Shown here one piece after another: positions 15,080-44,806 of a stretch of DNA of 64,000 bases (its first letter is position 1; every line of letters begins with the position of its first letter). The notes under the pieces are model-generated. The model did no database searches and was not told the DNA's origin. It was given only the letters and a program-made list of their open reading frames with translations. Origin of the DNA: Verrucomicrobiota bacterium (lineage in GTDB: Bacteria > Verrucomicrobiota > Verrucomicrobiia > CAIQCK01); assembly GCA_026397915.1 (NCBI GenBank), contig JAPLTX010000061.1:94731-158730 (forward strand), given 5' to 3'. The translations under genes were made by a program, and so were the position numbers.

Positions 15080-15138
15080 GGGTAAATAGGCGGCGTAACG
15101 CGGGACGCGGAAAGGGTAAAAAGCTAGAATCGGCGGGG

Positions 15139-17937: not shown

Positions 17938-17958
17938 GGGCGTGTGGAGGCGGCGTGT

Positions 17959-19055
17959 TTAAGGCGCGGTCGGTGTCGGCGTCGGCGGTGGGGCCGTTGG
18001 GGTTGGGGTTGCCGACGGACTCGTCGGGGTTGGTGTGACCGACGGACTCGTCGGGGTCGGTGTGGCCGACGGACTCGTCGGGGTTGGCGTGGCCGACGGA
18101 CTCGTCGGGGTCGGCGTGGCCGACGGACTCGTCGGGGTCGGCGAGGGGACCGTCGGTGTGGCGGTTGCGGTTGGTGTGGGCGGCAGCGCGGCGAGCACGA
18201 CCATGCCAACGGGATCGTCGGCGTGGTTGCCCTCGGCGTCGGTGGCGCGAACCCACCAGGTGAAATGGCCGGTGGTCGTCGGCGTGCCGGCGAGCGTGCC
18301 GTCGCTGTTGAGCGCGAGGCCCGGCGGCAGCGAGCCGGAAAGCAGCGACCAGGTGTAGGGCGCGACGCCGTCCACGACCGCGAACGCGAAGCTGTAGGCG
18401 GAGCCGACGTTGCCATCGGGCAGGTAGAAGTCGGACGTGACGCGGAAGCCGGTGCCAGTCGTTGGCGTGGGCGTGGGCGTTGGCGTCGGTGTGGCGGTGG
18501 CCGTCGGGGTCGGCGTTGGCGTGGCGGTCGCGGTCGGTGTCGGCCCTGTGCTTGTGGGCGTCGGCGTCGGGATAAATTGAACCGTGCCGAAATCGGTTGT
18601 CTCGTCGAAGCCGGCGGCAAAGACGGTCACATCTTCCTTGAGCCAGGTCTCGATGCGGCCGTCGGGCCGCTTCGCGCCGAACATGACGGTGGACGGCCTT
18701 GACTCCAAGCCCAGGAGCCACTCGGCGGAGACGGCCTCCGGGAACTTGAGGACGCATTCGAGCTTGCCGCCGCGTTTGATGAAGTCGTTTTTGAACGCGA
18801 CAAAGCCCGGATCGTCGAGCGTGCCGGTGGGGACGCCCTCGCCCGCGATGACGCCGACGACGAACTTGTAGCCCGCAACGTTGCGGTAGATGAACTTGTT
18901 GCCGGTCGTCAACGGGTTGGGCGAGAGCGGATGGATGCGCCACTCGACGGCGCTACCCTGAAAGAACTCGATGCGGTCGTAGGTTGGCTCGGCGTCGTCG
19001 TTGATGCCGGTGACGCGCTTGCCGGTGGCGGTGTTGAGATAGATGTCACGCATAG
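17959..19055 (-). CDS. phage tail fiber protein with He_PIG Ig-like domains and PT-rich linkers
   Basis: start MRDIYLNTATGKR chosen inside ORF 17959..19611; YLPDGNVGSAYSFAFAVVDGVAPYTWSLLSGSLPPGL motif; paralogous to 16639..17937. Confidence 0.5.
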
Positions 19056-19711
19056 AGGTAACTGTCCAATCCGAGGAGGTTGCTGTTGGCGTCGAGGAAC
19101 AAGAGCGTGCGGCGGCGCACGTCCTGGCCGGTCCACGCAAGGTGCCGGTCCACGGGCGCGATTTCGTGGCAGAGGTGCCAGTAGGGGGCGACGACGCGGA
19201 GATGCTGGCGGACGACGTTGCGGGGCGTGAAGACGTAAACGTCCTCGCCGCGCTCCTGGCTGAGCGTGGCGCTGTAGGCGGCGGTGATGTAACCGATGTA
19301 GAGAAAGCCCTTGAGCGTGGACGGCCAGTTGCCCTGGCTTGGGAACCACGGCCAGCCGGCGTCGGCAGGCGTCGGGCCGTCCTTGAGAAGCGCGGACACT
19401 GGCAGCACGCCGAAGTCGCCGCCGAGCTGCAGGAGCACCTCGGCCCAGACGTGATGGACGATGTTACCCTGCACCGGCACGGTGACAACGGCGTGCAACG
19501 GCTGTTCGCTCTCGCTGTCGTTGGAGGGCTTGATGTCCTTCGTGGCGTCGAGTGTTTCGCCAACGGCGATGTAGCCACGGCGCACGGCGAAGGCGGCCTG
19601 ATTGTTCGCAAGCGTCACGCCGTCGGGCGCGCTGCCGGGGACGATCTTCCAGGGGAAGCTCCACTCAAGCCTGTTGAGGCGGCAGCCCTCGGTGTCGTAG
19701 CGTCCGCTCAT
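19046..19711 (-). CDS. phage tail/baseplate-associated protein (hypothetical)
   Basis: 221 aa, located between tail tip genes and fibers; no recognisable motif. Confidence 0.3.
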   Translation of the reverse strand: MSGRYDTEGCRLNRLEWSFPWKIVPGSAPDGVTLANNQAAFAVRRGYIAVGETLDATKDIKPSNDSESEQPLHAVVTVPVQGNIVHHVWAEVLLQLGGDFGVLPVSALLKDGPTPADAGWPWFPSQGNWPSTLKGFLYIGYITAAYSATLSQERGEDVYVFTPRNVVRQHLRVVAPYWHLCHEIAPVDRHLAWTGQDVRRRTLLFLDANSNLLGLDSYLYA

Positions 19712-27165: not shown

Positions 27166-27984
27166 CTACGAGGTGATCTGCTGGGTGTTGAGAGCGGCCT
27201 TGATGGCGCGCACGTCGTCGGCCAGTTCCTCCAGCTTGGTGCGGAGGGTTTCCACCGTCGTCTTCGTGGCGGCGGTCTGGAGGGCCGTGTCGAGGAGGAT
27301 GACATCCTCGGCCAGGTCCTCGCACTTGCCGACCAGCGTGGCGAACTTCGCGCGAACGTCGCGCACGTCGTCGCCGATCTTCTCGGCCTCGGTGGCCAGC
27401 GGGCCAACCTCGGAGCAGCCGGCGGCGGTGCCGTTGGAGCTGGTCTCGGTCGCGAGCGCCACGGCCTCAATCTCGCCGTCGGTATTCTGCGGCGTGATGG
27501 TGGCCGGCGCGCCGATGGTCACGTCGCTGATCTCGCTGTTGGCGCTGCCGAGCGTGACGGCGGACGGCGCGGGCACGGCGGCGCTGAAGTCCACCAGCAC
27601 ACCGAGCGTGGCGTCAACCTTGAGCGCGCGGCCGGCGACAATCTTGTTGGTGCCGCCGTCCTTGCAAACCGTCTGGTCGTCTTCAACGAAAACGAGCTTG
27701 CCGAGTTCGGCGACCGTGACGGCGTTGGAGCCGCTGTTGTCCATCCACTGCGGACGGCGGTCGAGCACGGCGACAAGGTCGCCCGCGTCGCCGTCGGTGT
27801 TGTTCTTTTCGGCGACGAAGGTGCCGCGCACCTTGAGGCCCGAAGTGTCGGCGGCCGGGGCCACATTGCCCGCGGCGTTGACCGCCCCCATCGTGCCGGC
27901 GTAACAATGCGCCGCGGCGGCGACGGGGAAGTCCAAGGACTCGCCTGCCTGGCGGGTCACGTCTCTATTTTCTGTTGCTGCCAT
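27166..27984 (-). CDS. hypothetical head protein (scaffold/decoration candidate) with C-terminal coiled coil
   Basis: 272 aa between protease I-like and major head gene (Mu Z position). Confidence 0.3.
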   Translation of the reverse strand: MAATENRDVTRQAGESLDFPVAAAAHCYAGTMGAVNAAGNVAPAADTSGLKVRGTFVAEKNNTDGDAGDLVAVLDRRPQWMDNSGSNAVTVAELGKLVFVEDDQTVCKDGGTNKIVAGRALKVDATLGVLVDFSAAVPAPSAVTLGSANSEISDVTIGAPATITPQNTDGEIEAVALATETSSNGTAAGCSEVGPLATEAEKIGDDVRDVRAKFATLVGKCEDLAEDVILLDTALQTAATKTTVETLRTKLEELADDVRAIKAALNTQQITS

Positions 27985-28050: not shown

Positions 28051-29115
28051 TTACTTGCCGGCCGCGTCGTATTGCTCGCGTGTGATGTTCATCTGCTTGC
28101 AGACGTTCGCGATCACGTCGCTGGACTGGTCACCGGGCGCGCCGACAATGCCCGTGGAGGCAAGCGCCTTGATCTTCTCAGGCGTGCGCTGTTCCATCGG
28201 CACCTGGCCGGCGGCAAGGCTGCCCAGATACTTCTTCCAGCCCGCGAGGTCGAAGTCGTCGGCGCTGAGCGCGATGAGCTTCCCATCGCGGATGGCGAGA
28301 TTGGTCAGGTTCTGCTTCTCGATGCCGTCGAGCCGGTCGCTGACGGGCTTGACCCCGGCGCTGACGGCGGCCGTGATGGCTTCCGCCGAGAGCGGCTTCA
28401 CGGCATCCGCCGCAGTGGCTGGCGCGGCCGGCGCGACGGCCGCGATGCGGTCGGCGGCGGTGGCGGGGGCGACCTTGAGTTTGTCGGCCACCTTGGTGGC
28501 GGCGTCCTGGATTTCCTGGTCGGTCGCCGTGTCGGGCAGGCCGAGGATGATGAGCAGCAGTTTCTTGTGGTCCACGTTGTCTCCTGTGTTGGTGTTGTTG
28601 GTTGGTTCGGCGAGCGCGGCGGAAAGCACCGCCGAGAGGGGGAGCGTGATGCCGTCCACTTCGCCGTGGCGGCAGAGCGCAAACGAATGGACGAACGTCA
28701 CCGTGCCATCGGGCGCGGTGGCAACGGCGGCGGACACGTCGGGGTAGTCGGCCTTGTATTCCTCAGCGATGGGATTCCACTCGATGGAGCAGGCAAAGAG
28801 GCCCTCGCCCGCTACGACTTCGGGCGTCCAACGGCGCGCGGAAAGATGGCACGGCTCACCTTTGTAAAATTGTGTGCCTTCGACGGTCTGGTGTTGGAGG
28901 TCGCCGTGTGGCCGGGGGCGCTTGGCGCGCAACTGGTTCTTCGGCAGCAGCGCCATCGTGGATTCGTTGACCTTGAGATTGCCAAACCGGGTGTCGTTGT
29001 CGCCCCAGTGGAGGAGCTTGAGGCGCGTAGGCAGCGGCTTGGTGAGGTCGAGTTTCTCAACGGCTCCGAGCAGCGTCAGTTGGTTCTTGCCTTGCACGAC
29101 GCGAGTCCAACACAA
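28051..29115 (-). CDS. Mu protein I-like head maturation protease/scaffold
   Basis: 354 aa, position between G-like and T-like genes; N-terminal domain consistent with Mu-like prophage I family. Confidence 0.45.
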   Translation of the reverse strand: MCWTRVVQGKNQLTLLGAVEKLDLTKPLPTRLKLLHWGDNDTRFGNLKVNESTMALLPKNQLRAKRPRPHGDLQHQTVEGTQFYKGEPCHLSARRWTPEVVAGEGLFACSIEWNPIAEEYKADYPDVSAAVATAPDGTVTFVHSFALCRHGEVDGITLPLSAVLSAALAEPTNNTNTGDNVDHKKLLLIILGLPDTATDQEIQDAATKVADKLKVAPATAADRIAAVAPAAPATAADAVKPLSAEAITAAVSAGVKPVSDRLDGIEKQNLTNLAIRDGKLIALSADDFDLAGWKKYLGSLAAGQVPMEQRTPEKIKALASTGIVGAPGDQSSDVIANVCKQMNITREQYDAAGK

Positions 29116-29180
29116 CGCGGGGCATTCGCGCCAAGCACCGTGGCCATCGTGGCCATCGTTTCACCAAAAGGGTCAGGGTG
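29116..29180 (-). promoter_or_regulatory. conserved 45-nt motif CCCTTTTGGTGAAACGATGGCCACGATGGCCACG upstream of protease I-like gene; second copy at 44258..44300 upstream of holin-like gene
   Basis: near-identical copies in transcription-sense orientation before two late-type genes; contains direct repeat ACGATGGCC x2. Confidence 0.4.
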
Positions 29181-29186
29181 GGGAAA

Positions 29187-29230
29187 AGCTGAAAGCTGAG
29201 AGCTGAGAGCTGAGAGCTGAGAGCTGAGGG
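29187..29230. repeat. tandem heptamer array (AGCTGAR)n in G-I intergenic region
   Basis: agctgaaagctgagagctgagagctgagagctgagagctgag; one of 8 such arrays confined to the prophage. Confidence 0.8.
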
Positions 29231-29232
29231 GG

Positions 29233-29730
29233 CTACTTCGGACGGCGGCCGGAGATGCTCTCCCACTTCGCCTTCATCGCCTGCCCGATCTTCGTGTGGG
29301 CGAACTTTGCGATGACCTTGCCCACGAAGGGGAAGAACGGGCGCGCGGACAGGTTCCGCGGCGGATAGCCGAACTGGTGCGCGCGCGCGTAGGGCCGGTC
29401 GCTGGCCGCGATGGCGCGGTCGTTCGTTACCGACAGCACGCGGAGGCTGCGCAATAGCGACGTGGTCTTGATGAGCAGCGGCTTGCCATTGACTTTTCCG
29501 GCGGCGTTGCGACGACGGGCGTCGGGGCCGTAGGTGGTCTTGGGGTCGTCGCTCTTGCGGGCGGCCCACGGCGCGGCGCGCAGCGACGGGTCGCGGAACG
29601 AGCGGCGGGCGATGTTGACCAGTTCCTGAGCGCCGGCCCGAAGCACGGGCGCGGCCCGACGCGCCGCCTCGATCTTCCGGCGGAGATCGGGCGTGATGAG
29701 GTCTTGGACAAGACGGACGGTTGGTTTCAT
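29233..29730 (-). CDS. phage virion morphogenesis protein, Mu G-like
   Basis: 165 aa; ...TSLLRSLRVLSV...ARPFF motif of virion morphogenesis family; follows F-like gene. Confidence 0.5.
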   Translation of the reverse strand: MKPTVRLVQDLITPDLRRKIEAARRAAPVLRAGAQELVNIARRSFRDPSLRAAPWAARKSDDPKTTYGPDARRRNAAGKVNGKPLLIKTTSLLRSLRVLSVTNDRAIAASDRPYARAHQFGYPPRNLSARPFFPFVGKVIAKFAHTKIGQAMKAKWESISGRRPK

Positions 29731-29735
29731 TTGAG

Positions 29736-30674
29736 TCAGGCCGCGAGCTTCATACCGTTGAGCCAGTCGAGCAGCGTCACGCCCGGCTCAAGCTCCGTTG
29801 CCTTTGCCATCGTCTCGAACTGCGCGTAGGTGGCCGCGTCGTATTTGGCGCGCAACCCCTCGATGGGCACGGCCAGGCCGTTGGAATTGAGCGGCGTGCT
29901 TCGGAACCGCGCGCCCTTGTTGAGGTCGAACGTCCCCGTGCCGCCGCCCGCGCCGCCAGGGGTGTCGCTCCACTCGATCTTCTTGCCGATGTTCTTGTCG
30001 GCCATGCGCGCGGCCGTCTCCGGGCCGATGGCGATCTGCCCCGCCTCGGCTTGTTGCAGCGCCGCGCCTTCGAGCACGCGCCGGTCGTCGGGATGTTTGT
30101 CCGCGTCCGCGTCGCGGATGGCTTGAGTATCTTCTTTCGTCAGTGCTTCCTTCCAGCAACGGCAGCCCCACTCCTTAAACCGGTCCCAGAACGGCGAGTT
30201 GGCCGGCAACACTTTACCATCAAGCGCCTCGTGCGACGCGCGCACGTTCTCGTCGCCGACCGTGTGCCACTGCCAGTCGGGCATCACGTCGCGCTGCTCG
30301 TCGAGCGCCAGTGTCTGCGTGGCGTCGTAGACGTCATAGGCGTTGGTGCGCAGGACCAGTTCCGCGCGCGCGTTGGACGCCGCCAGTTGTCCGGCCCGCG
30401 TCTCGGCGTCGGCGGACGGGTCCACCATGTGCGGCGAAAACTCGTCGGCGATCCGCCCCTTGATGTCGTTCCAGTCTCCGCCCGCGGGAAGCTCCGCCGC
30501 CAGTTCTCGCACGCGGGCGATGGCGTCGGCGTGCTCCAGCGTGGCCGCCGTGAAGAGCCGCGCCCGCACCTCCGGCAGCATCGCGTCAAACACCTTGCGC
30601 GTCACCGCCGGCTTGCCGGCGAGGAACTTGACGGCCTCTTTGTTTGGAACGGATTTGAGAAGGAATGAGGGCAT
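29736..30674 (-). CDS. phage head morphogenesis protein, Mu F / SPP1 gp7 family
   Basis: 312 aa; NVRASHEALDGKVLP...WGCRCW matches Phage_Mu_F H..L.G and CRC signature. Confidence 0.6.
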   Translation of the reverse strand: MPSFLLKSVPNKEAVKFLAGKPAVTRKVFDAMLPEVRARLFTAATLEHADAIARVRELAAELPAGGDWNDIKGRIADEFSPHMVDPSADAETRAGQLAASNARAELVLRTNAYDVYDATQTLALDEQRDVMPDWQWHTVGDENVRASHEALDGKVLPANSPFWDRFKEWGCRCWKEALTKEDTQAIRDADADKHPDDRRVLEGAALQQAEAGQIAIGPETAARMADKNIGKKIEWSDTPGGAGGGTGTFDLNKGARFRSTPLNSNGLAVPIEGLRAKYDAATYAQFETMAKATELEPGVTLLDWLNGMKLAA

Positions 30675-30702
30675 GGGAAAATGGAGTGTTGGAGTGGTGG
30701 AG

Positions 30703-31149
30703 TTATGGAGTGGCGGCGTCGGCCTGATCCAGCTTGCTGGTCTTGATGCGAAAGTTCAGTTCCCTCGCGACCGCCACGGCGCGGACGATGTAGTCGGGCA
30801 CGTTGGCCGCGTGCAGCGCGCCGAGCATCGTCGCCAGTTCGTTCTCCACGTGCGGCAGGTTGGAACACGCCTCTTCGCGCTTCATGCCGTCGCCAGCGAG
30901 GTAGCGGAGCAGATACTTTTGCAGCGCGTGCTCGTAGATGTCCAAGTCCGCGTGCCGAGCCAGCGGCAGCGCGCCAACCGGGGACGGCGCTTTCATCACA
31001 TCCGTGTGCGGCGGCCTCACGGGCGGCCCTTCCGGCCCGTCGGTGATGGCTTGCAGCGCGGCGGACATTTTATTTCTAAAACCTTCACCCCGACACAGCT
31101 GACAGTTGGCGTCGTTGCAGTATGTTTGATGATCGGAAATCAGTCTCAC
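30703..31149 (-). CDS. hypothetical Cys-containing phage protein (GTG start overlapping rSAM stop)
   Basis: 148 aa; CNDANCQLC motif; GTGA overlap with upstream stop. Confidence 0.3.
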   Translation of the reverse strand: MRLISDHQTYCNDANCQLCRGEGFRNKMSAALQAITDGPEGPPVRPPHTDVMKAPSPVGALPLARHADLDIYEHALQKYLLRYLAGDGMKREEACSNLPHVENELATMLGALHAANVPDYIVRAVAVARELNFRIKTSKLDQADAATP

Positions 31150-31877
31150 GGCTCCACCTCGTTCTTGATCAGCCGGCCAAGGTTCTTCTTCTGGCGGATT
31201 TCAATGCCCGCGCATTGTAACAACCGAATCAGTCGGAGAACGTCATGCTCGTCTGGTTCCACGAGGCCGTGTCCCTTGGAGTCTGCACCAATGTTGACGA
31301 ATGTCGGACGGGCGGCCTCAATCCAGTCAGCCAACTCCACCGGGTTGAAGTCGAGGACCGGCTCTATAGTGATGAACGTCGGCATCGTCGGCCAGTAGGA
31401 CCGAATCCGCTTAAAGTGCGAGATGCGGTTGCGCGGGGCTGGTGCGTCGCCCATGACTTGATGCCACCGATTACTTTCAATCGTGACGCCTACAATGAAG
31501 TTTCCGGGACGGAAGAATCGGTTGTCCGCGAACACGTCGAACAATCGCTCAGGATTCTTCGTCTGAAAAACGAACCTGTTTTCCTTCCACTCGAAGCAGT
31601 GCTGGAGGATAAGGCGAATCCAAGACTCGGGAACGTCGGCAGCAAACAGGTCGCTGCAATGCTCGATGAAGATCGTCTTGCCGGTGCCGTAGTTGACCGC
31701 CAGTTCCTTTTTCTCCAACCGCAGCGGGCCTTTATAGTGACCCGTGCGGTAGCCGGGGCCAGACTTCACGTAGCAGTAGCCGCAACGGTGCGGGCATTCT
31801 CCGCGCAGGTGCGTGTGGGTGTGCGTCACCCAGCCTTGATACATGTTGGAACCGTCTTGGACCTTGGTTAGTGGCAT
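31146..31877 (-). CDS. radical SAM-like enzyme (CxxxCxYC; phage Gp37/Gp68 DUF5131-like)
   Basis: GECPHRCGYCYV cluster-binding motif with aromatic residue before third Cys; 243 aa. Confidence 0.6.
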   Translation of the reverse strand: MPLTKVQDGSNMYQGWVTHTHTHLRGECPHRCGYCYVKSGPGYRTGHYKGPLRLEKKELAVNYGTGKTIFIEHCSDLFAADVPESWIRLILQHCFEWKENRFVFQTKNPERLFDVFADNRFFRPGNFIVGVTIESNRWHQVMGDAPAPRNRISHFKRIRSYWPTMPTFITIEPVLDFNPVELADWIEAARPTFVNIGADSKGHGLVEPDEHDVLRLIRLLQCAGIEIRQKKNLGRLIKNEVEP

Positions 31878-31986
31878 GGTGGGGCCTCCGAAGGTAGGGA
31901 CGGACCGCCGGGCCGTCCGTTGTTTCCAGTCATCGGCGCGCCCAGCGGTCGCGCCCTACCCAGCAGAATGAAAAGAGGCTTGGTGT

Positions 31987-32178
31987 TCATCGCGCGGCCT
32001 CCTGTGTTTTGAACGCCGCCAGTATTTTCCTGAGTGCGGTCTTCTCGGCGTAGAAAACCGTTGACCGCGACAATCCCATCATCCGCGCAACCGTCCTGTG
32101 GCTGCGAATTGGTCCGAGGGCATTCGCCAGGTCTCGCGTTGCTGTTGCGGATGCTCCCCATTTTGTGGTCCTGTTCAT
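31987..32178 (-). CDS. small HTH DNA-binding protein
   Basis: 63 aa; TVARMMGLSRSTVFYAEKTALRKI helix-turn-helix; ATGA overlap with 3D-domain gene stop. Confidence 0.35.
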   Translation of the reverse strand: MNRTTKWGASATATRDLANALGPIRSHRTVARMMGLSRSTVFYAEKTALRKILAAFKTQEAAR

Positions 32179-32677
32179 CGCGCCAGTTCCAGTCCCCCAT
32201 CCGCTCTGCGGTAGGTTCCCGCCGCGAGGCGCTGGCCGGCGGCGATGATCTCGGCCATGCGGCGCTCGAACCGCTCGTCGTCGAGCTTCCGCTGCCACTC
32301 GCGGCGCGTGAGGATCGTCACCGGCATCCATCGCCAGCCGAATCGCTTTGCCTCTTCGTGTGTCGCGAAGAGCAGGTCGAGGCGGTTTGCGCCTTTGATG
32401 TCTCGGCCGGTGTCGTCGGCGCGGTTCCAACGGCCGTTGACGTGGACCATCGAGCCGAGCGGGATGCGGCGAGGGTCCACGGCCACGATCTGGCCGACCG
32501 CCTGCCGCCCCGTGGCCGTGAGGCCGCAGGCATTCGGCCCGCAGCAGATTCGGCACGGGCAATAGGCGGTGACGCGGACCCAGCGGGTCGAGGCGGCGAG
32601 GGCGGGAGATGGGAGATGGCAGATGGCAGATAGGAGGAGCAGGGCAGTCCCCAACTTCCAGCTTCCAACTCCCATCT
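32175..32677 (-). CDS. secreted 3D-domain (MltA/RlpA-like) cell-wall hydrolase, candidate endolysin
   Basis: 167 aa from MGVGSWKL...ALA/AS signal peptide; VRVTAYCPCRICCGPNACGLTATG...GSMVHVNGRWNRADDTG 3D domain. Confidence 0.55.
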
Positions 32678-32692
32678 GCTTCGTTCTCCTCC

Positions 32693-33154
32693 TCACAGCG
32701 CCTCCTGGTAGATTTCCAGATTGGTTTTCCTGACCGTGTGGCTGCCGATCTGCACGTCCACCTTGGTCTGCCAGAACTCCATGTCCTTGCAGCGGTCGCG
32801 GTGGTCGAAATAGCTCTGGAGGCTGAAGTCGTAGTTGCGCGGGCCGACTTGCGAGCCGTCCACAAAGCCGGCGCGGATCAGCCGCACCAGCGTCTTGTAG
32901 TTCACACCCAGGCCGAGTTGCGCGGGGAGCTTGACGGTGAGCCGGAGGTTGCGCGAGTGGATGCGCACGACGGGCCGGTAGGTGCCGTCGCCCGCCGGCT
33001 GCAAATCGTGCAGGCCGACGCGCGGCGCCTGGCCGGCCGGGCACTCGACAACGAACTGCCCCGGCGCGACCTCGACCGTCAACGGCGCGGGGCCGTTCAG
33101 GACGGACACAAGCGAGTGCGGAGTGCGGAGTGCGGATTGCGGAAGAGGTTTCAT
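32693..33154 (-). CDS. hypothetical phage protein
   Basis: 153 aa ORF with ATG start. Confidence 0.3.
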   Translation of the reverse strand: MKPLPQSALRTPHSLVSVLNGPAPLTVEVAPGQFVVECPAGQAPRVGLHDLQPAGDGTYRPVVRIHSRNLRLTVKLPAQLGLGVNYKTLVRLIRAGFVDGSQVGPRNYDFSLQSYFDHRDRCKDMEFWQTKVDVQIGSHTVRKTNLEIYQEAL

Positions 33155-33159
33155 GGCAG

Positions 33160-33567
33160 TCAGAGGTTCAACAGCTTTTGTTCGCGGAGGGCGTTGGCCT
33201 TCGCGGCGGCGAAGAGTCCGCGCGCCTCGAAGTCGGAGCAGGCGCGATAGACGCCGCCGGCGGAAGCGGCGGGAGTTGGGAGATGGGAGTTGGGAGTTAG
33301 GGCCGGAGATTCCACCCTCCCATCTGCCAACTCCGATCTGCCATCTGCTTTACCCACGAGCACCACGAAGCCGAGTTGGTAGAGTTCCGTGACGCGGGGG
33401 CGCATGTCCACGAGAAACAGCGGGTTGTTGGGCCGCATCTTCACCGCCAGTTCCTTCGTCGTGCAAGGGCCGTGGACTTTGAGCGCCTCCAGAACTTCGA
33501 GGCGCAGGTCCACAAGGTATTTGGCCTTGAGGCTGGCGAAGGTTTCGTTCCTAAAATCAACGGGCTT
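33160..33567 (-). CDS. hypothetical phage DNA-binding protein (winged-helix-like N-domain); C-terminus reads through a tandem repeat
   Basis: MKPVDFRNETFASLKAKYLVDLRLEVLEALKVHGPCTTKELAV. Confidence 0.3.
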   Translation of the reverse strand, partial: KPVDFRNETFASLKAKYLVDLRLEVLEALKVHGPCTTKELAVKMRPNNPLFLVDMRPRVTELYQLGFVVLVGKADGRSELADGRVESPALTPNSHLPTPAASAGGVYRACSDFEARGLFAAAKANALREQKLLNL

Positions 33568-33771
33568 CATAATTAAGCGCAAGCCTCAGTTGCACCCCCC
33601 CCCATTTTGGATTTGGCGCTTGTGCGCGGCGCAGACTTGAACGCGATAAGCTTCGCCGCTGCTCGTGTCGGTAAACGTGCCGTTGGCGATGTGATGACAG
33701 CCTGGCCACTTGCAGTAGAACGGCGCGCGGCCCCGCGTGGTCTTGGTGCTGAAGAGTGTTTTCATGGCAGT

Positions 33772-34344
33772 TCAGAACGGGATGTCGGCGGTTAGGGCTG
33801 CCGGCTGAGGGCTGAAAGCTGAAGGCTGAGAGCTGACAGCTTTGCGCCGATTCCTCACCGTGTAAACGAGACACCAGACCTGACGCTCGGTTGCCTCGGC
33901 CAGGCTGCACTTGAACTGCCTGCGGCAGATGGCGGCGGCGTAGCTCTCGTGCAGGCCGCGCTCGCGGAGGGACTCGCGCAGCTTGAACATCGCCAGCCGG
34001 ATCGGCTCGGTCGCCACGCGTTCCTCCGCGCGCCGCGCCGCCGCGGCGTTGCCTTTGAGCATAAGGAACCGGCCCTCGATGAGTTTGTATTCGCGCTGTG
34101 TCGCGCCACGCAAAGACGTGTAGCCGCACGCAAACATTTGCTGGGTGTGCCGCCAGTCGTCCAACTCGCCCTGGCTGGCGGCGGGCCGGCCATAGACCTC
34201 CTCGAACGCCTCGCGCGCTAGGATGCAGAGGTGCGCCTTCTGGCCGTTCTCGAGAGGCGCGCTGGGCGACGGCACGGGCCGTCCGCTGCCGTGGCGAAAC
34301 ACGGCGCGGAAGTCGTCGCTCATGATGTCGGCGGGGATGATCAT
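33772..34344 (-). CDS. GemA-like (Mu gp16 family) regulatory protein, tentative
   Basis: 190 aa; KAHLCILAREA...DDWRHTQQMFACGYTSLRGATQREYKLIEG pattern resembles Mu GemA family. Confidence 0.3.
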   Translation of the reverse strand: MIIPADIMSDDFRAVFRHGSGRPVPSPSAPLENGQKAHLCILAREAFEEVYGRPAASQGELDDWRHTQQMFACGYTSLRGATQREYKLIEGRFLMLKGNAAAARRAEERVATEPIRLAMFKLRESLRERGLHESYAAAICRRQFKCSLAEATERQVWCLVYTVRNRRKAVSSQPSAFSPQPAALTADIPF

Positions 34345-34375
34345 ATTGAAGCTCCCAGCTTTCAGCTCTCAGCTT

Positions 34376-34630
34376 TCAGTTCTCATTTGCGGGAGTGATG
34401 GAGTGTTGGAGCGATGCTTGTTCCAACGCGCGCGCAATTCTATCCACCGCGTCGGTTACAAGGTCGTGATATGAAGCCTGCCTTCCCGCCAAGGGAACAA
34501 CGCAAGTCTTTGAGACCCCGCCTCCGGCGTTGGTGATGGCCACGTAGATTACAACTCCGTTTTCTTCTAACGCCGTCTTCGCCAGCTCCTGGCCAAGGTT
34601 GAAGCAAGTGTTTATATACACAGCCTTCAT
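34376..34630 (-). CDS. small hypothetical phage protein
   Basis: 84 aa from MKAVYINTCFNLGQ; ATGA coupling to upstream gene. Confidence 0.25.
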   Translation of the reverse strand: MKAVYINTCFNLGQELAKTALEENGVVIYVAITNAGGGVSKTCVVPLAGRQASYHDLVTDAVDRIARALEQASLQHSITPANEN

Positions 34631-34995
34631 GATTCCTCCTCGCACTGCTGGCAGATGCAGTTGTTCCCGCCGGGGTTGCAGCAGGCGGTGGAGCCTGGCA
34701 GGTTGCAGCGCGGGCATTCATAGACCGCGTGGATCGCGGGGTCGAATGTCATGCCGCACTTCGGGCACTTGGCGTCCGCTGATTGCTCGGCGATGATCTG
34801 GCCGAGCGTCTTCCACGGATAGCCCTGCAACACCGGCACGAGCCGGATGTCAACGCTGCGCTCCGTCAGAAACTTCGCGGCCTCCGCGAGCGTGTCGCAC
34901 TGGTGGACCACGCGCCACGATCCGCTCCCTTGTTTGATCTGCCAGCGGTCCTGCCCGACGCGTTTGCCGATGCGATATTCTTCCTTCACGCTGCC
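34627..34995 (-). CDS. zinc-ribbon phage protein (CPKC...CPRC)
   Basis: GTG start overlapping Gam-like stop; C-terminal double CxxC. Confidence 0.3.
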   Translation of the reverse strand, partial: GSVKEEYRIGKRVGQDRWQIKQGSGSWRVVHQCDTLAEAAKFLTERSVDIRLVPVLQGYPWKTLGQIIAEQSADAKCPKCGMTFDPAIHAVYECPRCNLPGSTACCNPGGNNCICQQCEEES

Positions 34996-35513
34996 TCCTG
35001 TGCCGGCGTCTCGGCGGCGGTTTCGGGCTTGGGGCGGATGAAGAACTGTTCGTCCTGGCAGAACTGGATGCCGAGGGCGGTCTGCTTTTCCGGCGTGAGC
35101 GTCTCGCGGTCGGCCAGCAGCGCGTCCTTGTCCAGACTGAGCTTGGCGCGGACATAGACTTTGCTCCACGAGGCTTTGACGGCGCGCTTGATGACGTCGG
35201 CCCACTTGATCTTCTTGTTGGCCGTCTCCACGCGGTGCGGCGTCATCTCGAAGCCGAACACGGCGAGGCTGGTCTCGCGGCTCTTCTTGTCGGTGAACAG
35301 CCCGCCACGGTTGGCCGCGCAGAAGGCGAGGATGGTTTCCTCGTCGAGCGTGATCTCGGCTTCCTTCTTTGTGATGCCGGCTTGGTGCTGTTTCTCAACG
35401 GCGGCGACCTCGGTGTCCTTGGCGGCTTTGAGCGTCGTCAGTTCGATGCGTTTGCGCACGACGGCGGCAACAGCCGTGTCGAGCGATTCGGGTGATGTGA
35501 TTTTTAGATTCAT
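34986..35513 (-). CDS. gam: host-nuclease inhibitor protein Gam-like (Mu Gam family)
   Basis: 175 aa; N-terminal coiled coil then ...FCAANRGGLFTDKKSRETSLAVFGFEMTPHRV... as I recall the Mu Gam core (WCEANRDELT...VSWRVRPPSV; motif recalled from memory, not checked against a Mu Gam sequence). Confidence 0.5.
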   Translation of the reverse strand: MNLKITSPESLDTAVAAVVRKRIELTTLKAAKDTEVAAVEKQHQAGITKKEAEITLDEETILAFCAANRGGLFTDKKSRETSLAVFGFEMTPHRVETANKKIKWADVIKRAVKASWSKVYVRAKLSLDKDALLADRETLTPEKQTALGIQFCQDEQFFIRPKPETAAETPAQEAA

Positions 35514-35529
35514 AGTTGGCAGTTTCCTT

Positions 35530-35928
35530 TCAGGTTTGGGAGTTGGGAGTTGGCAGATGGGAGTTGGATGGGGCCGGGGCGGTTGTTTGCAGTTGGGAGA
35601 TTTCGCTCGCGTAGCGCGTCTGGTAGCGGTGCAACATGCCGAACGCCCCGGCGAGACGTTGGCGGGCTTGCTCCAGTTGCAGCAGCTCGTCTTCTTCCAG
35701 GAGCGTGCCGACGGCGTCGGACTCGTAGAGGCGCTCCTCGATGAGGAGAGCAGCGGCCACCATTTTCGCGGCGGCGGCCGTGGCGCGGTCCTGCGGCAGC
35801 GGGGAGCGGGGGGCGGGCGGAACGGGCGGGCAGGAGAAGTTCCAAAGCCGGATGAACAGCTTTGCCATCAGCACTCCACCAGCCACCGCGCACACGGCCA
35901 ACAAGATAGATGCAATCCAAGGGTTCAT
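35530..35928 (-). CDS. hypothetical phage membrane protein
   Basis: 132 aa; N-terminal TM; start within repeated RBS-start cassette. Confidence 0.25.
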   Translation of the reverse strand: MNPWIASILLAVCAVAGGVLMAKLFIRLWNFSCPPVPPAPRSPLPQDRATAAAAKMVAAALLIEERLYESDAVGTLLEEDELLQLEQARQRLAGAFGMLHRYQTRYASEISQLQTTAPAPSNSHLPTPNSQT

Positions 35929-36125
35929 CGTGTTGCCTCCGATTTGGAACGGATGTTTACGGCCGTCATCAGACAGAATTCCACCCGGATAGCGGCCTCC
36001 TCGAAGTCCTTGAGGAACTTCCGGCCTTCAGTGTCGAGTTTGTTGTTCTTGATCTCGCGCAGCACTGCGGTGAGTTGGTCGTAGGCGAGACGGAGCCTGA
36101 ATGCCTGAACGTCGTTGATCTTCAT
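35925..36125 (-). CDS. small hypothetical early protein ending ...SEATR
   Basis: start MKINDVQAF in RBS-start cassette; ATGA overlap. Confidence 0.25.
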   Translation of the reverse strand: MKINDVQAFRLRLAYDQLTAVLREIKNNKLDTEGRKFLKDFEEAAIRVEFCLMTAVNIRSKSEATR

Positions 36126-36355
36126 CGTGTTGCCTCCGATGTCTGTGACGGAACTGGCAAGGGGCAATAATCCACAAATGTGATCTCCCCGGTTATGAAG
36201 CCGCTTGAAATCTTGAAGTCGGCTGATCTAAAGCCGCACGTGCAGCCGTGGAATTTTCGTTCGAGCCTCCGAGCCTCTTTCTGACTTCCCATGCCGCACA
36301 CAGCCACGGTGAACGCGGACAGTTCCATCTCTTCGCCAAGAATAATGGCTTTCAT
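36122..36355 (-). CDS. small hypothetical early protein ending ...SEATR
   Basis: 77 aa; cassette start/stop overlap. Confidence 0.25.
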   Translation of the reverse strand: MKAIILGEEMELSAFTVAVCGMGSQKEARRLERKFHGCTCGFRSADFKISSGFITGEITFVDYCPLPVPSQTSEATR

Positions 36356-36552
36356 CGTGTTGCCTCCGGTTGAGATTCCGTGTAGAGCCTGGTGATCTGT
36401 TTCTTAACCGTTCTGAACCCATTATCCGCGATCTTCAGCGCCAGCGTTTCCGCATTTGGGATGCCGAGCGGAGGCAGCCAAACATCAAGCTCCAGCGGGT
36501 TGAGCTTCCCACCGCGGAACAACTCGATATATAGATGCACTTCAGTTTTCAT
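36352..36552 (-). CDS. small hypothetical early protein ending ...PEATR
   Basis: 66 aa; cassette start/stop overlap. Confidence 0.25.
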   Translation of the reverse strand: MKTEVHLYIELFRGGKLNPLELDVWLPPLGIPNAETLALKIADNGFRTVKKQITRLYTESQPEATR

Positions 36553-36771
36553 CTACGCAGCCTCCTGTGTTTTGAGAAAGCGAGCGCCGTCCTGTCGAAG
36601 ATTCGAGTGCGAACGAAACCCGCAACTCGCCGTGTCCCACATCGCTGACACGAATCGGAGTCCACGCTTGAAGAACCGGCGCTGTCTGGCGTTGCCGCGA
36701 ATGTGGCACCCGTCCGAATGTCCAACGTCGTTGAATGGCAATGAAGTGTTTGCGGTGATGGTCTGTCTCAT
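36553..36771 (-). CDS. small hypothetical early protein
   Basis: 72 aa; ATG overlaps MuB-like stop (ATGA). Confidence 0.25.
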   Translation of the reverse strand: MRQTITANTSLPFNDVGHSDGCHIRGNARQRRFFKRGLRFVSAMWDTASCGFRSHSNLRQDGARFLKTQEAA

Positions 36772-37871
36772 CGTGTTGCCTCCGATTTGGCGGTGATCTC
36801 GCGGGCGATGTCGTCGAGCGTTGCGCCCTTCCTCAGCGAGATGGCGAGCGGCTTGATCTTCACGGCCTCGCGCACGAGGATGTTGACGAACTGTCGGAGG
36901 TCAATGGCCTCGTCTCCGTGGTCGTGCGCCACGCGGCGGCAGACGCGGTTGACGAACTTGAAGTAGCCGTGCGAGAGCGCAAACGGCTCGATGGCGGCGA
37001 CGGCCTTCTCCAGCACGCCCTTCCCGAACGCGATCCGGTCCTTGAACATCAACTCCACGTCGCCCTGTTCGATGACGCTGAGGTCAATGCGCTCGTGCAT
37101 CCGATTGTGCGTGAGTTGCTGCGCCTCGAAGTAGCCCTTCGACACCTCCAGCCGCTGCATGAGCGTGTTCTGCGCCGAAACAATGAACTCGCCCGGTGTC
37201 TGATTCACCAGCGTCTTGACGAGGTTCAACATGCGCGGTGTCAGGTGATGGGCCTCGTCAATGCCGATGCAGAGGCGCTTCTTGTTCAGGTGCTCGACGA
37301 GCTTGCGCATCCGCTGGGTCGTGGAGACGGGCATCTCGAACTGGACGTTCTTGTCCGGCTCCTTGGGCTTGAAGCCGAGCGCGCCGAGAATCCGCCCCAG
37401 CATCTCGTGATCGGTCCACGTCTCGTCGGCCTCGGTGAACGTGACGCGCACCGGATACTTCATCTCCAGGGACTGGCGGGCCTTGGTCTTGCCGCTGCCG
37501 CTCGGCCCCTGCATCCAGATCAGCCGCGTGTTGTCCTGTTCGCGCATGATCTCCAAGAACGCCACCCGCAGCCGCATGCACGGCGTGAGATCGTGGTTGA
37601 TCGGCTCTTCGTCGGGGGCCGACTTCTCCAGGTTGTCCATCGTGCTGGCGACGGTGCGATAGCGCAGCACCCAGCTTTCGAGGTCGCCCGCCGAGTATTC
37701 CCCGGCGAGGATGGCGTTGAAGGTCTTGGCGCTGCCGAGGTCGGCGAACTCGCGCGCGAGCTTGTCGCGCGTCCATCCTTTGTCGAGTTGGTAACGCTCG
37801 GCGCGCTGGGCGAGCGCGCGCAACTCCGCGCGCACCGGGTCGATCTGCGGGTCATTGTGGGTCGTATTCAT
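36768..37871 (-). CDS. MuB-like AAA+ ATPase, transposition target DNA activator
   Basis: 367 aa; N-terminal HTH then Walker A MQGPSGSGKTKA; immediately downstream of transposase as in Mu A-B. Confidence 0.7.
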   Translation of the reverse strand: MNTTHNDPQIDPVRAELRALAQRAERYQLDKGWTRDKLAREFADLGSAKTFNAILAGEYSAGDLESWVLRYRTVASTMDNLEKSAPDEEPINHDLTPCMRLRVAFLEIMREQDNTRLIWMQGPSGSGKTKARQSLEMKYPVRVTFTEADETWTDHEMLGRILGALGFKPKEPDKNVQFEMPVSTTQRMRKLVEHLNKKRLCIGIDEAHHLTPRMLNLVKTLVNQTPGEFIVSAQNTLMQRLEVSKGYFEAQQLTHNRMHERIDLSVIEQGDVELMFKDRIAFGKGVLEKAVAAIEPFALSHGYFKFVNRVCRRVAHDHGDEAIDLRQFVNILVREAVKIKPLAISLRKGATLDDIAREITAKSEATR

Positions 37872-37888
37872 TGTAGCTCTTTCTGGTT

Positions 37889-39880
37889 TCAGGTTTCGAT
37901 CAGGTCACCGCGGGCGCGGGCTTCGGCCTCGCGTTTGGCGATGTAATCGGCCGCGGCAGTGCGGTCGAAAGAGACGCGGGAAACGGCCGGGGCCGTTCCT
38001 CGCGTTGAAAATGTGGCCGGCTCGGTATCGGTGTCTCTCGCGTTTGCGGCGGACTCGCCGAGCCGGCTCACCGTGTCGTGGTGTGTAAGTGGAGATTGGA
38101 GTTTGGAGATGGCGACGCGGCTGACGTTGCCCCGGCCGTCGCTGTCGAGGTGGACAACGGCGGCGCGTCCGGTGCTCTCGATGGCCGCGAAGCTCGAGCG
38201 CACCTGGGCGGTGCGGAGCTTGCGCGCGGCGGTGGCCGGCGAACGGTAACCCTCGCAATCAACGAACTGCGGCCCGTCGGCACTCCAGGGAGCGATGCCG
38301 ATGAACTGGAACCGCTTCCAGTTCTCGCGATTCATCGGGCGCGTTTCGTTATTGAAGAGCGCACAGCCGGCCTCCGGCGCGAGCGGGTCGAACCGCGCGA
38401 TGACGCGGTGGCCGCGCTCGATGAACGGAAAAGCCGCCGTCGCCACGTGGAACCGAAACGGGCGCGCATAAGGCGCAACGGAAACCTGCACATGGCCCGC
38501 GAGTTTGGTGCCGACGCCGACCTCGCTGATGGTCGGCTTGAAAAACCAGAACTCCTCCTCGCTCACCGCCGGCAGCGATCCGCCGCGCGCGGCCATGTCG
38601 CGCTCCCACGTCACGTCGGGAGCTTCCGCTTTGAGGCCGTCAACCTTGCGCGCCCGCTTGTTCAGGAACTGGCAGCCGGCGACAAGCTTTTGGATCAGCA
38701 CCTCGCCCCACGGAATGAAGCCGCACTTGGCCGGATCGGCCTTGCCCTTGTTCACGGCCATCATGTCATCGGTAGGCTGCTCGTATTCGCCGCGCGTCTT
38801 GCCGATGCGCACGCCATGCACGCCCATGATCTTGTGGAACGGCCGAAACGAGGACTCGATGCCGCCCTTGGCGTTGGAGGAGAAAACGTGGTCCACGGGG
38901 ATGACGCTGGCGATGCCGCCCCAGCGGTTGCCGGCGTCGTCAATCTGAATACCGTCGAGCGCGTTGTTTTCCCAGCGACCGCGTTCGTCGCGGAAACGGC
39001 CAAACCGCCCCCAGCGCCGCGTGAGAAGTTCCTTGAACCGCGCGATGTCCTCGGCGCGGTAGCTGTCCGCAAAGCGCGCGATGGGATAGACGCCGAGCCA
39101 CTTGCCGCTGCGCACGTCGCGCGCCATCAGGATTTGACGCCCCACGCGCCAGTAGCCGTCCGGGTCCATCCAGAAAAACGGAACGTCGGTTGACACGTCG
39201 TCAAACTCGATGATGTCCCCGCTGTTCACAGGCACCCATGCGCCGTGGTCGTCGTAACCGTAAAAGCCGCGGCGCACGCTGAAGACGATGCTCCGCAGCG
39301 CGTCGCGGCTGCGCGCCGCTGCCATTTCCTCCTGCGTCACGCGCACGTCGCGCATGATGCTTTGCGGGTATCGGCCCGTCAGCCGGTTCGCGGCGAGGGC
39401 CTCGCGGACCTCCGGCCGGCACACCGGCGAGTCGGCCATCAACTCGATGCCCATTGGCACGCTCTCGGTCTTTAGGACAAACGTGCGGGCGAGCTTCTTC
39501 TCTGCGTCGTTGAGGTTCACTTTTTTCTTTCGCCCGCAGTTCTTGTATTGCCGGCCGAGCTTTTCCTCGCCGCCGGCATCGAGCAGCCGCGCGTAGCGCA
39601 ACAGCGTGCAGTGCGGCTTGCCGAGTATCCGAGCCGCCTCCGCCGCGCTCGACGCCATCGGCGGCTGGCCGTTCTCTCCGGGCTTTTGCAGCGCGCGCCA
39701 CTCGCGCACGAGCGACGCGCGGCGTTGCTTCCAGGCGTTGTCCAAGGACTGCGGAGTCGGAACCGCCGCCGCGGCGTCGCTGGAAACAATCGCGCCCGGA
39801 GGTCGCGATCCACCTGTAGCGGCGGTCTCTGACCGCCGATCCGGCGCGGGCGAGGAGTTCGCCCCCGCGCAGTGTTGCAT
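37889..39880 (-). CDS. Mu-type DDE transposase (MuA-like)
   Basis: ORF 37889..40132; central rve/DDE core (SGDIIEFDDV..., ...VIPVDHVF...), N-terminal HTH; start uncertain (39880 or 39658); ~590-664 aa. Confidence 0.75.
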   Translation of the reverse strand: MQHCAGANSSPAPDRRSETAATGGSRPPGAIVSSDAAAAVPTPQSLDNAWKQRRASLVREWRALQKPGENGQPPMASSAAEAARILGKPHCTLLRYARLLDAGGEEKLGRQYKNCGRKKKVNLNDAEKKLARTFVLKTESVPMGIELMADSPVCRPEVREALAANRLTGRYPQSIMRDVRVTQEEMAAARSRDALRSIVFSVRRGFYGYDDHGAWVPVNSGDIIEFDDVSTDVPFFWMDPDGYWRVGRQILMARDVRSGKWLGVYPIARFADSYRAEDIARFKELLTRRWGRFGRFRDERGRWENNALDGIQIDDAGNRWGGIASVIPVDHVFSSNAKGGIESSFRPFHKIMGVHGVRIGKTRGEYEQPTDDMMAVNKGKADPAKCGFIPWGEVLIQKLVAGCQFLNKRARKVDGLKAEAPDVTWERDMAARGGSLPAVSEEEFWFFKPTISEVGVGTKLAGHVQVSVAPYARPFRFHVATAAFPFIERGHRVIARFDPLAPEAGCALFNNETRPMNRENWKRFQFIGIAPWSADGPQFVDCEGYRSPATAARKLRTAQVRSSFAAIESTGRAAVVHLDSDGRGNVSRVAISKLQSPLTHHDTVSRLGESAANARDTDTEPATFSTRGTAPAVSRVSFDRTAAADYIAKREAEARARGDLIET

Positions 39881-40150
39881 GAAGCCAATAACCGAGGCCG
39901 GCAGACGATCTCCATCTGCGCCATGCTGCGCGCTGCCGAATCGGCGGTCAGAGACTGCCGCTGCAGAAAGCTGAGAGCTGAAAGTTGAAAGCTGAGGACT
40001 GCGATCTCCCGCCGCAACGTCGGGGCGCGTTGCGGCGGGCGGGGGTTGGTTCTGGCCTGTGAACGGCGCGGGCACAATCGCCCCGGTCAACTCCGCGCCG
40101 CTCCGCGTCTTGTTGGTTATAGAATCGTGCATGGCCAGATGGCGGGAACG

Positions 40151-40423
40151 TCAGGGGTTTGGAAGTGTGCCGAGCAACGCGGCGAATCCGCCCGCTCTCC
40201 AGGCTTTGGCAATCTGCTTGATGTGCCGCGGATTCGTGTCATTCGCGTAACACGCGCCGGCCAGCGTGTCGCCCGCGACCATCTCGTCGTAGATGCCTTG
40301 CAGGAGTTTCAACCGGCCGATGGCGACCTTTAATTGATGGTTCGTCGGGCCAACCGGACGCCGGGGGACTTCCGCGCTCACAAACAATCGCCGGAGAACT
40401 TCTTTACGCCGGTCGCCCTTCAT
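40151..40423 (-). CDS. small hypothetical early protein
   Basis: 90 aa between ParB-like gene and transposase. Confidence 0.25.
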   Translation of the reverse strand: MKGDRRKEVLRRLFVSAEVPRRPVGPTNHQLKVAIGRLKLLQGIYDEMVAGDTLAGACYANDTNPRHIKQIAKAWRAGGFAALLGTLPNP

Positions 40424-41265: not shown

Positions 41266-41342
41266 GTTCTTCTTTCCTTTTGGGGTTGGTTGTTGGCAGT
41301 GACTGCGGCAAAAGTTGAGAGCTGAAAGCTGAAAGCTGAGGG

Positions 41343-42575: not shown

Positions 42576-42681
42576 TTTGGTGTTGCCTTTCGCGGCTTCC
42601 GGCGGGACTCTCAGCGAAGTTGTAACAGGTCGTGCCATTTGACGGGCACCCTTTTAAGCAAATTTGCTGGCGCTGTCAACA

Positions 42682-43601: not shown

Positions 43602-43605
43602 GACA

Positions 43606-44769: not shown

Positions 44770-44806
44770 CCCCCAACGGCGCGCCCAGCGGTCGCGCCCT
44801 ACCTAC

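Follow-up and report, generated by a model that had tools for sequence, protein, structure and literature searches.

A near-identical 45-nt intergenic module precedes two late operons of a transposable prophage from a Verrucomicrobiota bacterium and is a putative control element

The analyzed window, a stretch of 64,000 nt (64 kb) from the contig of a Verrucomicrobiota bacterium, contains a complete transposable prophage of 35.7 kb. The prophage is inserted in a gene for a HisKA_2-type histidine kinase, which breaks off at position ~15,052 and resumes at ~50,724, and the tetranucleotide CTAT is present on both sides of the insert. The prophage termini are imperfectly inverted and carry GTTTGAAACGG, and subterminal repeats of the form GACC(N)TTTCAAAC are present. 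The genes and regions on which the analysis is based are the following:

15,053 to 50,723, the whole transposable prophage, 35,671 bp, containing both copies of the module described below
27,166 to 27,984, minus strand, head-module virion structural protein gene (phrog_1731), located after I and followed by the T major head gene and the tail genes
28,051 to 29,097, minus strand, Mu I-like head maturation protease (PF10123), 348 aa, the first gene after module copy 1
29,233 to 29,730, minus strand, Mu G-like virion morphogenesis gene (PF05069), 165 aa, upstream of module copy 1
40,420 to 41,460, minus arm, ParB-N-like gene
42,393 to 42,638, minus strand, Ner/Cro-like gene
42,664 to 43,125, plus strand, XRE-type repressor, facing the Ner/Cro-like gene
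43,122 to 43,601, plus strand, 159-aa gene of the repressor-side operon
43,606 to 44,250, plus strand, final gene of the repressor-side operon, encoding a 214-aa protein that by eye appears to have an N-terminal signal peptide
44,335 to 50,341, plus strand, the operon after module copy 2, encoding proteins of 144, 92, 321 (multi-transmembrane), 71 and 236 aa, followed by the terminase and the portal
47,019 to 48,713, plus strand, large-terminase-like protein
48,704 to 50,341, plus strand, Mu portal, separated from the prophage end by 380 nt

On the minus arm, the ParB-N-like gene is followed by a 747-aa ORF, an AAA+ B-like gene, Gam and several small genes. The later part of the arm contains a 3D-domain hydrolase, a DUF5131 gene, Mu F and G, the module, I, the phrog_1731 protein and T; the tail genes after T were assigned by position. 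The 747-aa ORF occupies the position of the Mu transposase A and had no family match. The identification of G, I, F and T was confirmed. The plus arm consists of the repressor, two genes whose products appear to have N-terminal signal peptides, the module, and the operon with the membrane protein, terminase and portal genes. In this operon the 144-aa protein has a single transmembrane segment. It had been called holin-like in the original prediction; no family match was obtained for it, and among the related loci compared it had no homologue outside this phage. The 236-aa protein is a possible small terminase, judged from its position.

The terminase and portal genes are thus located apart from F, G and I and are transcribed in the opposite direction. 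In the closest relative (L121, with a protease that is 52% identical) and in a second related locus (L128), F also directly follows the early and middle genes, and in three IMG/VR genomes the terminase and protease are encoded on opposite strands. As these relatives agree, the split late region is not an accident of assembly. For the terminase-like protein ~270 relatives were detected. No cultured relative was present in the phage collection, and the protease, used as single-protein query against IMG/VR, did not retrieve a relative.

The module is a 45-nt sequence, ACCCTTTTGGTGAAACGATGGCCACGATGGCCACG[G/C]TGCTTGGCG, that occurs twice in the window. The two copies are identical at 44 of 45 positions (98%); the sole mismatch is at module position 36, where copy 1 has G (29,138) and copy 2 has C (44,294). 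The copies and their core are located as follows:

29,129 to 29,173, minus strand, module copy 1, 45 nt, in the spacer between G and I
44,259 to 44,303, plus strand, module copy 2, 45 nt
29,139 to 29,159, minus strand, 9-nt direct repeat ACGATGGCC, 2.3 units, in copy 1; the same core is located at 44,273 to 44,293 in copy 2

When searched as a 44-nt pattern, CCCTTTTGGTGAAACGATGGCCACGATGGCCACG[G/C]TGCTTGGCG, the module matched positions 29,129 to 29,172 on the minus strand and 44,260 to 44,303 on the plus strand with zero mismatches to the S-degenerate pattern, and extension of this pattern gained one A to give the 45-nt unit. No match was obtained in 100 dinucleotide-preserving shuffles, with a chance expectation of 0. 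The duplication that had been predicted is therefore real, with coordinates that differ by a few bases from those given originally. The predicted 9-nt direct repeat was also found in both copies, where the core can equally be read as TGGCCA-N3-TGGCCA, that is, as two TGGCCA palindromes 9 nt apart. The module starts with GACCCTTTT...AAAC. Besides the two TGGCCA hexamers, it contains a ACCCTTTT box. The sequences around copy 1 and copy 2 show no similarity to each other, from which it follows that the module is not a fragment of a longer duplication. Neither copy is coding.

Further copies were searched for at several levels. The window contained no third or diverged copy when the whole module and both of its halves were allowed up to three mismatches, when TGGCCA-N3-TGGCCA was used as the pattern, or when both spacers were compared by blastn-short, and the additional diverged copies considered in the original prediction were thus not recovered. 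Specifically, no copy was present in the 28 kb of host flank within the window, and none was located upstream of F and G or of the tail genes. The module was absent from ~95 loci from related phages and was not found with longer patterns in IMG/VR and the JGI metagenomes. A scan of a genome collection with a 21-mer of the module, a sequence that is common by chance in GC-rich genomes, gave at least 117 unrelated matches, with none showing the module flanks among the matches listed.

Both copies are intergenic, lie in sense orientation and are positioned at the entry to virion-gene operons, in agreement with what had been predicted. Copy 1 begins 59 nt past the stop codon of G and ends 31 nt before the GTG start codon of I at 29,097. 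This start codon results in an I protein of 348 aa, which is the length of the NCBI-listed protein P0001. With it the spacer between G and I measures 135 nt; with the TTG start codon at 29,115 it measures 117 nt. Copy 2 begins 8 nt past the stop codon of the 214-aa gene, and 31 nt lie between its end and the ATG at 44,335, which is the start called in two Logan assemblies. An alternative ATG at 44,437 lies 133 nt from copy 2, and the third-position GC content (GC3) is 0.71 for 44,335 to 44,436 versus 0.91 downstream, so the start codon after copy 2 is uncertain and the 31-nt spacing of this copy depends on it.

A coding function of the module was rejected. The G-I spacer contained no credible ORF, as had been noted originally. 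Apart from a 26-aa ORF with its start codon in the module, its reading frames were long out-of-frame artefacts, which are explained by the GC-rich genome. The corresponding small ORFs (MATMAT[V/L]LG…, 26 aa at copy 1 and 54 aa at copy 2) encode peptides that match each other only in the residues encoded by the repeat, and their GC3 of 0.65-0.69 compares with 0.85-0.91 for real genes.

We propose with moderate confidence that the module is a site through which transcription of both late operons is jointly controlled, and that it is the positional analogue of the phage Mu promoters PI and Plys. It would act as a phage-specific cis-acting DNA site that switches on both operons together, namely I, T and the tail genes on the minus arm and the membrane protein, terminase and portal genes on the plus arm. 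The site would be a late promoter or operator that the host primary sigma factor alone cannot recognize. A phage-encoded DNA-binding protein may bind the TGGCCA-N3-TGGCCA or 9-nt repeat core; alternatively, another (alternative) sigma factor may use the module. Transcripts would begin close to the 3' edge of the module, with a leader of ~30 nt. The doubled 6-bp palindrome of the core is typical of the sites of dimeric DNA-binding proteins and counts in favor of a control site. So do the near-identity of the two copies amid unrelated flanks, their sense orientation at the head of virion-gene blocks and their equal distance from the called start codons. Copy 2 divides the repressor-side operon from the terminase and portal genes, which lie on the same strand. 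The terminase, portal and membrane proteins should be silent in the lysogen, and a separately controlled promoter is therefore needed exactly at this position; that the repressor-side promoter drives the terminase and portal genes during lytic growth is unlikely.

Phage Mu has late promoters before lys and I (PMC2582627), and the module resembles PI and Plys in being a shared conserved element that precedes both I and a second late operon (PMC2582627, PMC4461284). Copy 1 has the position of PI. Copy 2, which precedes the membrane protein, terminase and portal genes, may correspond to Plys; the second operon starts with membrane protein genes, to which a lysis role can be assigned only putatively as compared with Mu lys, and continues with the terminase and portal, which unlike in Mu are located on the opposite arm beside the repressor. 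The Mu late promoters and the module have in common that a usable -35 hexamer is absent and that a partial-dyad core would suit a dimeric activator. They differ in that the Mu promoters retain a recognizable -10 hexamer and have no more than a 16-bp imperfect dyad in common, whereas here 45 nt are nearly identical. In the C-dependent promoters of Mu the dyad is centered at about -43.5 and is bound by a dimeric activator; here TGGCCA-N3-TGGCCA is a candidate counterpart. C-dependent promoters precede lys, I, P and mom in Mu, in contrast to the two copies found here, neither of which precedes the tail genes or F and G.

Customary promoter signals are absent from the module. From module copy 1 to the start of I there is no TA dinucleotide, and consequently no TANNNT sigma-70 -10 hexamer. 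After copy 2 a single TAGGCT is present, 6 nt before the ATG at 44,335. No consensus promoter match was found near the modules, which means little as the scan performed at chance level over the whole prophage. By inspection, the GG-N10-GC spacing of a sigma-54 promoter is off by 1-2 nt, which speaks against this type. The sequence TGAAAC-N17-CG[G/C]T in the module fits a loose ECF pattern with a GAAC-like -35 and a CGT-like -10 element, and as this pattern occurs 11 times in the prophage it carries no information. A Mu-type C-dependent promoter was rejected, as no -10 hexamer was present and no gene for a Mor/C activator or a sigma factor was detected among ~40 prophage ORFs. The original prediction had suggested a Mor/C-like activator as the protein acting on the direct repeat; in ~40 prophage ORFs, some of which were scanned at E values up to 1, there was no Pfam match to the Mor/C family, nor to sigma factors, recombinases, resolvases or integrases.

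Three other prophage proteins are candidates for a regulator that would act on the module. The ParB-N-like protein (40,420-41,460) is a possible one, and the two others are encoded by adjoining genes:

33,160 to 33,570, minus strand, winged-helix DNA-binding protein, 136 aa, first candidate regulator
32,693 to 33,154, minus strand, 153-aa protein adjoining the 136-aa gene, second candidate regulator

The 136-aa protein belongs to a family of ~170 small proteins with members that match MarR, HTH_24 and HVO_A0114, and its structural model (pLDDT 84) resembles winged-helix regulators of the MarR/ArsR/SmtB type. It is kept in 22 related loci and is missing from L121 and L128, which counts against this candidate. 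Conservation of the 153-aa protein extends to 25 related loci, with L121 and L128 among them. Its model was of low confidence, with weak matches to a winged helix of the Xis/MerR type. Fold searches of the two candidates thus returned MarR/ArsR-like and weak Xis-like matches and no Mor.

Analogous elements were found in related phages. L128 (GCA_021324395.1, contig JAJPJG010000036.1; I protease 36% identical) carries a 33-nt module of its own, ACCCCTTTTCCACCCTTTCCACGGCTCTTAGAC, in two copies that are 94% identical and that precede I and a tail gene; a weak third copy precedes another late gene, and all three are in sense orientation. Like the module described here, it is private to its phage, consists of sense repeats before I and other late genes, and opens with ACCC(C)TTTT. 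Its remainder (…CCACCCTTTCCACGGCTCTTAGAC) is unrelated, its copies lie 10 and 34 nt from the start codons, and they are direct repeats on one arm, unlike the inverted pair found here. The function of the L128 module is putative; its presence upstream of I and a tail gene supports a regulatory role of the module described here. The opening ACCCTTT recurs in the G-I spacers of L121, L128, L148 and L151. Among 7-mers with the same base composition it ranks joint first in these spacers, occurring in 5 of 23 phages. L148 and L151 agree at 74 of 75 positions in the stretch that runs from ACCCTTTCC to the start of I, versus 88% identity in the adjacent coding sequence, and the similarity collapses immediately upstream of ACCCTTTCC. 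Both observations count in favor of a control site. An element common to the G-I spacer and the lysis arm was not found in the three IMG/VR related genomes that contain both arms.

It is also conceivable, and in our judgement rather unlikely, that the module has no regulatory function and is a short dispersed repeat, neutral or selfish, which was copied into two permissive spacers by recombination or gene conversion. The prophage is rich in short repeats. A 26-nt GC hairpin element has three perfect copies beside start codons, a 23-nt gene-junction repeat has four copies, and octamer arrays occupy many spacers. Heptamer arrays are present close to both module copies:

29,185 to 29,228, minus strand, CAGCTCT/CAGCTTT array, six units, between the stop codon of G and module copy 1
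44,351 to 44,379, plus strand, CAGCTCT array, about four units, downstream of module copy 2 and inside the called 144-aa ORF or its leader

The original prediction had described each module copy as accompanied by such an array. The arrays are indeed present, but they are not specific to the module. They lie on opposite sides of it, on the upstream side at copy 1 and on the downstream side at copy 2, and CAGCYYT arrays occur eight times, scattered through the prophage, and are absent from the host flanks. Since eight such arrays are spread through the prophage, their association with the module is probably incidental. Other arrays of 7-8-nt units are present in intergenic spacers across the whole window, and different units are used across related phages. 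As the phage has other perfectly conserved short repeats, near-identity alone is no proof of regulation. The G-I spacer of related phages also tolerates insertions, and in L155 it holds a 48-nt palindromic element of which four further copies are located elsewhere, the five copies being in both orientations. The module is comparable to REP and MITE elements as a short, highly conserved intergenic repeat in a repeat-rich genome. However, it differs from them in that a stable hairpin, terminal inverted repeats and a target duplication are all absent, and in that only two copies are known, both oriented with transcription; a MITE was rejected for the lack of inverted termini and of a target duplication at the flanks. 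Further, the module is not palindromic, only two copies are present in 64 kb and none in the host flank, and it was not recovered from the metagenome collections, all of which argues against a dispersed repeat. The same holds for the placement of the copies, which are both in sense orientation, at operon entries and equidistant from the called start codons.

The constant distance of 31 nt to the called start codons would also be consistent with a function at the RNA level, which we regard as distinctly unlikely. The module would then be transcribed within the leader of longer mRNAs and act there, for example by binding a translational regulator, by directing processing or stability, or within a regulated terminator or antiterminator that controls how far read-through reaches the late genes. 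No other element divides the early and middle genes from I on the minus arm. In L128 only 10 nt separate the module from the start of I, a distance too short for a promoter with a leader of normal length. In L121, L148 and L151 a hairpin and a T-run come after the ACCCTTT box, just before I, and this suggests control of read-through. The folding analysis speaks against this explanation. The two module copies folded with -12.2 and -12.3 kcal/mol (z = -0.29 and -0.85), and the module and both spacers did not fold better than shuffled sequence (z = 0.27, 0.06, -0.29, -0.85). The module had no match in Rfam, and the consensus scan, which was at chance level over the whole prophage, found no terminator-like site close to either copy. 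A structured RNA and an intrinsic terminator were rejected on these grounds, and the absence of significant RNA structure and of an Rfam match favors a role at the DNA level. In addition, read-through at copy 2 would tie the terminase and portal genes to the repressor-side promoter, which is implausible in lytic growth.

A DNA-level function other than transcriptional control, in which the module is a site of genome architecture or recombination, appears very unlikely. Such a site could mediate inversion of a 15-kb segment or bridging by the ParB-like protein, gyrase or the transposase. The copies form a 45-nt inverted pair that is 98% complementary and flanks 15,085 bp, and the prophage encodes a ParB-N-like protein. 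Further, the strong gyrase site (SGS) of Mu is central and maps near the genes G and I (PMC10052514). The Mu SGS, however, is single-copy and must be central, whereas of the two module copies one lies at 39% of the genome length and the other close to an end. With the prophage center at ~32,890 and the copies at 29.15 kb and 44.28 kb, the centrality of the Mu SGS is seen for neither copy, and with distances of 14.1 kb to one prophage end and 6.4 kb to the other the two sites are neither central nor symmetric. The opening of the module, GACCCTTTT...AAAC, resembles the subterminal end repeats GACC(N)TTTCAAAC, but this likeness requires a 4-nt insertion and could be due to chance; the 13-mer with up to two mismatches was found seven times versus 4.45 expected. 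No recombinase, resolvase or integrase was matched among the scanned prophage ORFs, and inversion would restore no canonical gene order. All Logan contigs of this phage break inside the module and consequently do not link its two flanks. In its strictest form, in which the inverted copies are no promoters and the phage uses them for synapsis or crossover to bridge the 15-kb early segment or to invert it, the idea is extremely unlikely. If true, inversion would swap the late operon that follows the early arm (…F-G) with the one that follows the repressor arm, or the entries of both late operons would be brought together in a loop through bridging, for instance by the ParB-like protein; either would be a genome-architecture switch that has not been described for transposable phages.

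The position of copy 1 relates the module to a further known system. In the Pseudomonas Mu-like phages of the JBD30 and D3112 group, anti-CRISPR genes are located between G and the protease/scaffold gene, as the original prediction had correctly stated, and a conserved promoter-like sequence is present at the 5' end of this slot (PMC3993853). The G-I location and the presence of a conserved sequence are common to both. Unlike the acr-aca locus, in which one or more small ORFs precede an HTH aca gene, the slot described here is without a credible ORF (those of at least 20 aa over 29,100 to 29,232 are spurious long out-of-frame ORFs and the 26-aa ORF of the module) and without an aca-like HTH gene, and the conserved sequence is common to two operons of one phage instead of being common across phages. 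In 18 of 23 distinct relatives, the gap between G and I measures 60-230 nt and holds no ORF. Small inserted genes in the homologous spacers, which had been proposed as a point to check, were encountered in the form of extra coding sequence in three of the 23: a 62-aa membrane-protein ORF in L148, two ORFs of 92 and 101 aa in L151, and a partial duplication of I in L145. Hence this phage group, too, makes occasional use of the G-I slot, and the occupied slots are candidates for accessory or counter-defence genes.

Taken as a control site, the module is best filed as a putative phage late-operon control element, a known class, and this classification is plausible but ordinary. If the module is a late control site, it would offer a way into the regulation of late genes in a large and uncultivated group, Mu-like phages of Verrucomicrobia that have a split late region and no recognizable Mor/C activator. 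It could then be used as bait for the regulator and as a marker of late-operon starts in the annotation of such prophages.

The ends of the Mu-like prophage could be resolved to a single base (15040-15140 and 50540-50790). The 35,671-bp insert (15053-50723) interrupts a HisKA_2 histidine-kinase gene and is flanked on either side by CTAT. At its termini the insert has imperfect inverted repeats (CG..ACTA..GTTTGAAACGG); a subterminal repeat, GACC(N)TTTCAAAC, was located at 50582, 50675 and 50695 and, on the minus strand, at 15069. The prophage (42393-50341 versus 15139-42638) departs from the canonical gene order of Mu-like phages: the repressor arm carries membrane-protein, terminase and portal genes directed toward the genome end, and the opposite arm carries early and middle genes, followed by F-G-I-T-tail (Mu gene names). 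The same split order is common to the related phage loci L121 and L128 and to three IMG/VR genomes (contigs 3300014205_000568, 3300049216_000581 and 3300035703_000213), whereas L126 differs in having a contiguous repressor-holin-terminase-portal-protease order.

The 45-nt non-coding module opens with the heptamer ACCCTTT, which has eight copies in the prophage, seven of them non-coding. Two of these seven lie in the modules, three point outward near the two ends of the prophage and two are situated in the repressor/Ner control region. The sites outside the modules are found within 42639-42681 and 42541-42553, and at 50547, 50583 and 15108-15117. One control-region copy overlaps TTGACA-17-TAAAAG, which is probably an early promoter. 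The recurrence of ACCCTTT in the prophage could be due to chance or could reflect a shared protein-binding box.

The Logan contigs of the same phage (L001, L002, L125, L160 and L161), short-read unitigs from four sequencing runs, all start or stop inside the module, as expected because the repeat exceeds the assembler's k. The Logan assemblies are therefore silent on which flanks are joined. Among the related phages, the content of the spacer between the G-like gene and the protease I gene varies as follows:

L145:9071-10001, partial tandem duplication of the 5' region of I
L148:9515-9941, ORF for a 62-aa membrane protein
L151:2143-2952, ORFs of 92 aa and 101 aa
L155:8546-8595, 48-nt palindromic element with five copies in the L155 locus

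Short repeats are present throughout the prophage. A GC-rich 26-nt hairpin element, GGTAGGGCGCGACCGCTGGGCGCGCC, has three perfect copies in the window, all of them within the prophage:

31935-31960, GGTAGGGCGCGACCGCTGGGCGCGCC
41568-41593, GGTAGGGCGCGACCGCTGGGCGCGCC
44778-44803, GGTAGGGCGCGACCGCTGGGCGCGCC

Two copies precede a start codon, by 3 and 9 nt, and the copy at 31935-31960 precedes that of the DUF5131 gene by ∼57 nt. A diverged inverted partner accompanies two of the three copies, and with it the element would form a stem of ∼26 bp; the partner of the copy at 31935-31960 ends 15 nt before the DUF5131 start. CAGCYYT heptamer arrays occupy eight sites within 29185-46290 and are restricted, in the window, to the prophage. 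They consist of 3-6 units, with ∼17 units at 41880-41999, and similar arrays are also present in related phages (L121 and L151). Spacers between co-directional prophage genes are filled by octamer arrays, CACTCCAN on the coding strand, and related 7-8-nt arrays occur in the host flanks as well (e.g., 4072-4160, 57113-57134 and 57984-58019).

Tandem repeats, 27-nt and related, form long tracts at 16880-18545, with units such as CGTTGGGGTTGGCGTGGCCGATGGACT. These tracts separate a glycosyltransferase/methyltransferase gene (15139-16629) from the ORF at 19046-19711, the last one recognisable on the late arm. In the region that they cover no ORF passed the codon-bias filter; the region may represent a repetitive fibre gene.

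A 747-aa ORF (37889-40132) occupies the position of Mu transposase A. It contains an inverted pair, CTGTAGCGGCGGTCTCTGACCGCC… (91% complementary, spaced by 89 nt), together with a heptamer array (39814-39995), and the true start of the gene is probably downstream of ∼39,810. Among the minus-strand genes, a 23-nt junction, CCAAATCGGAGGCAACACGATGA, comprising a Shine-Dalgarno sequence and an overlapping stop/start, is present four times (35925, 36122, 36352 and 36768). All four proteins encoded upstream of these junctions end in …EATR, which suggests that duplication gave rise to a family of small early genes.
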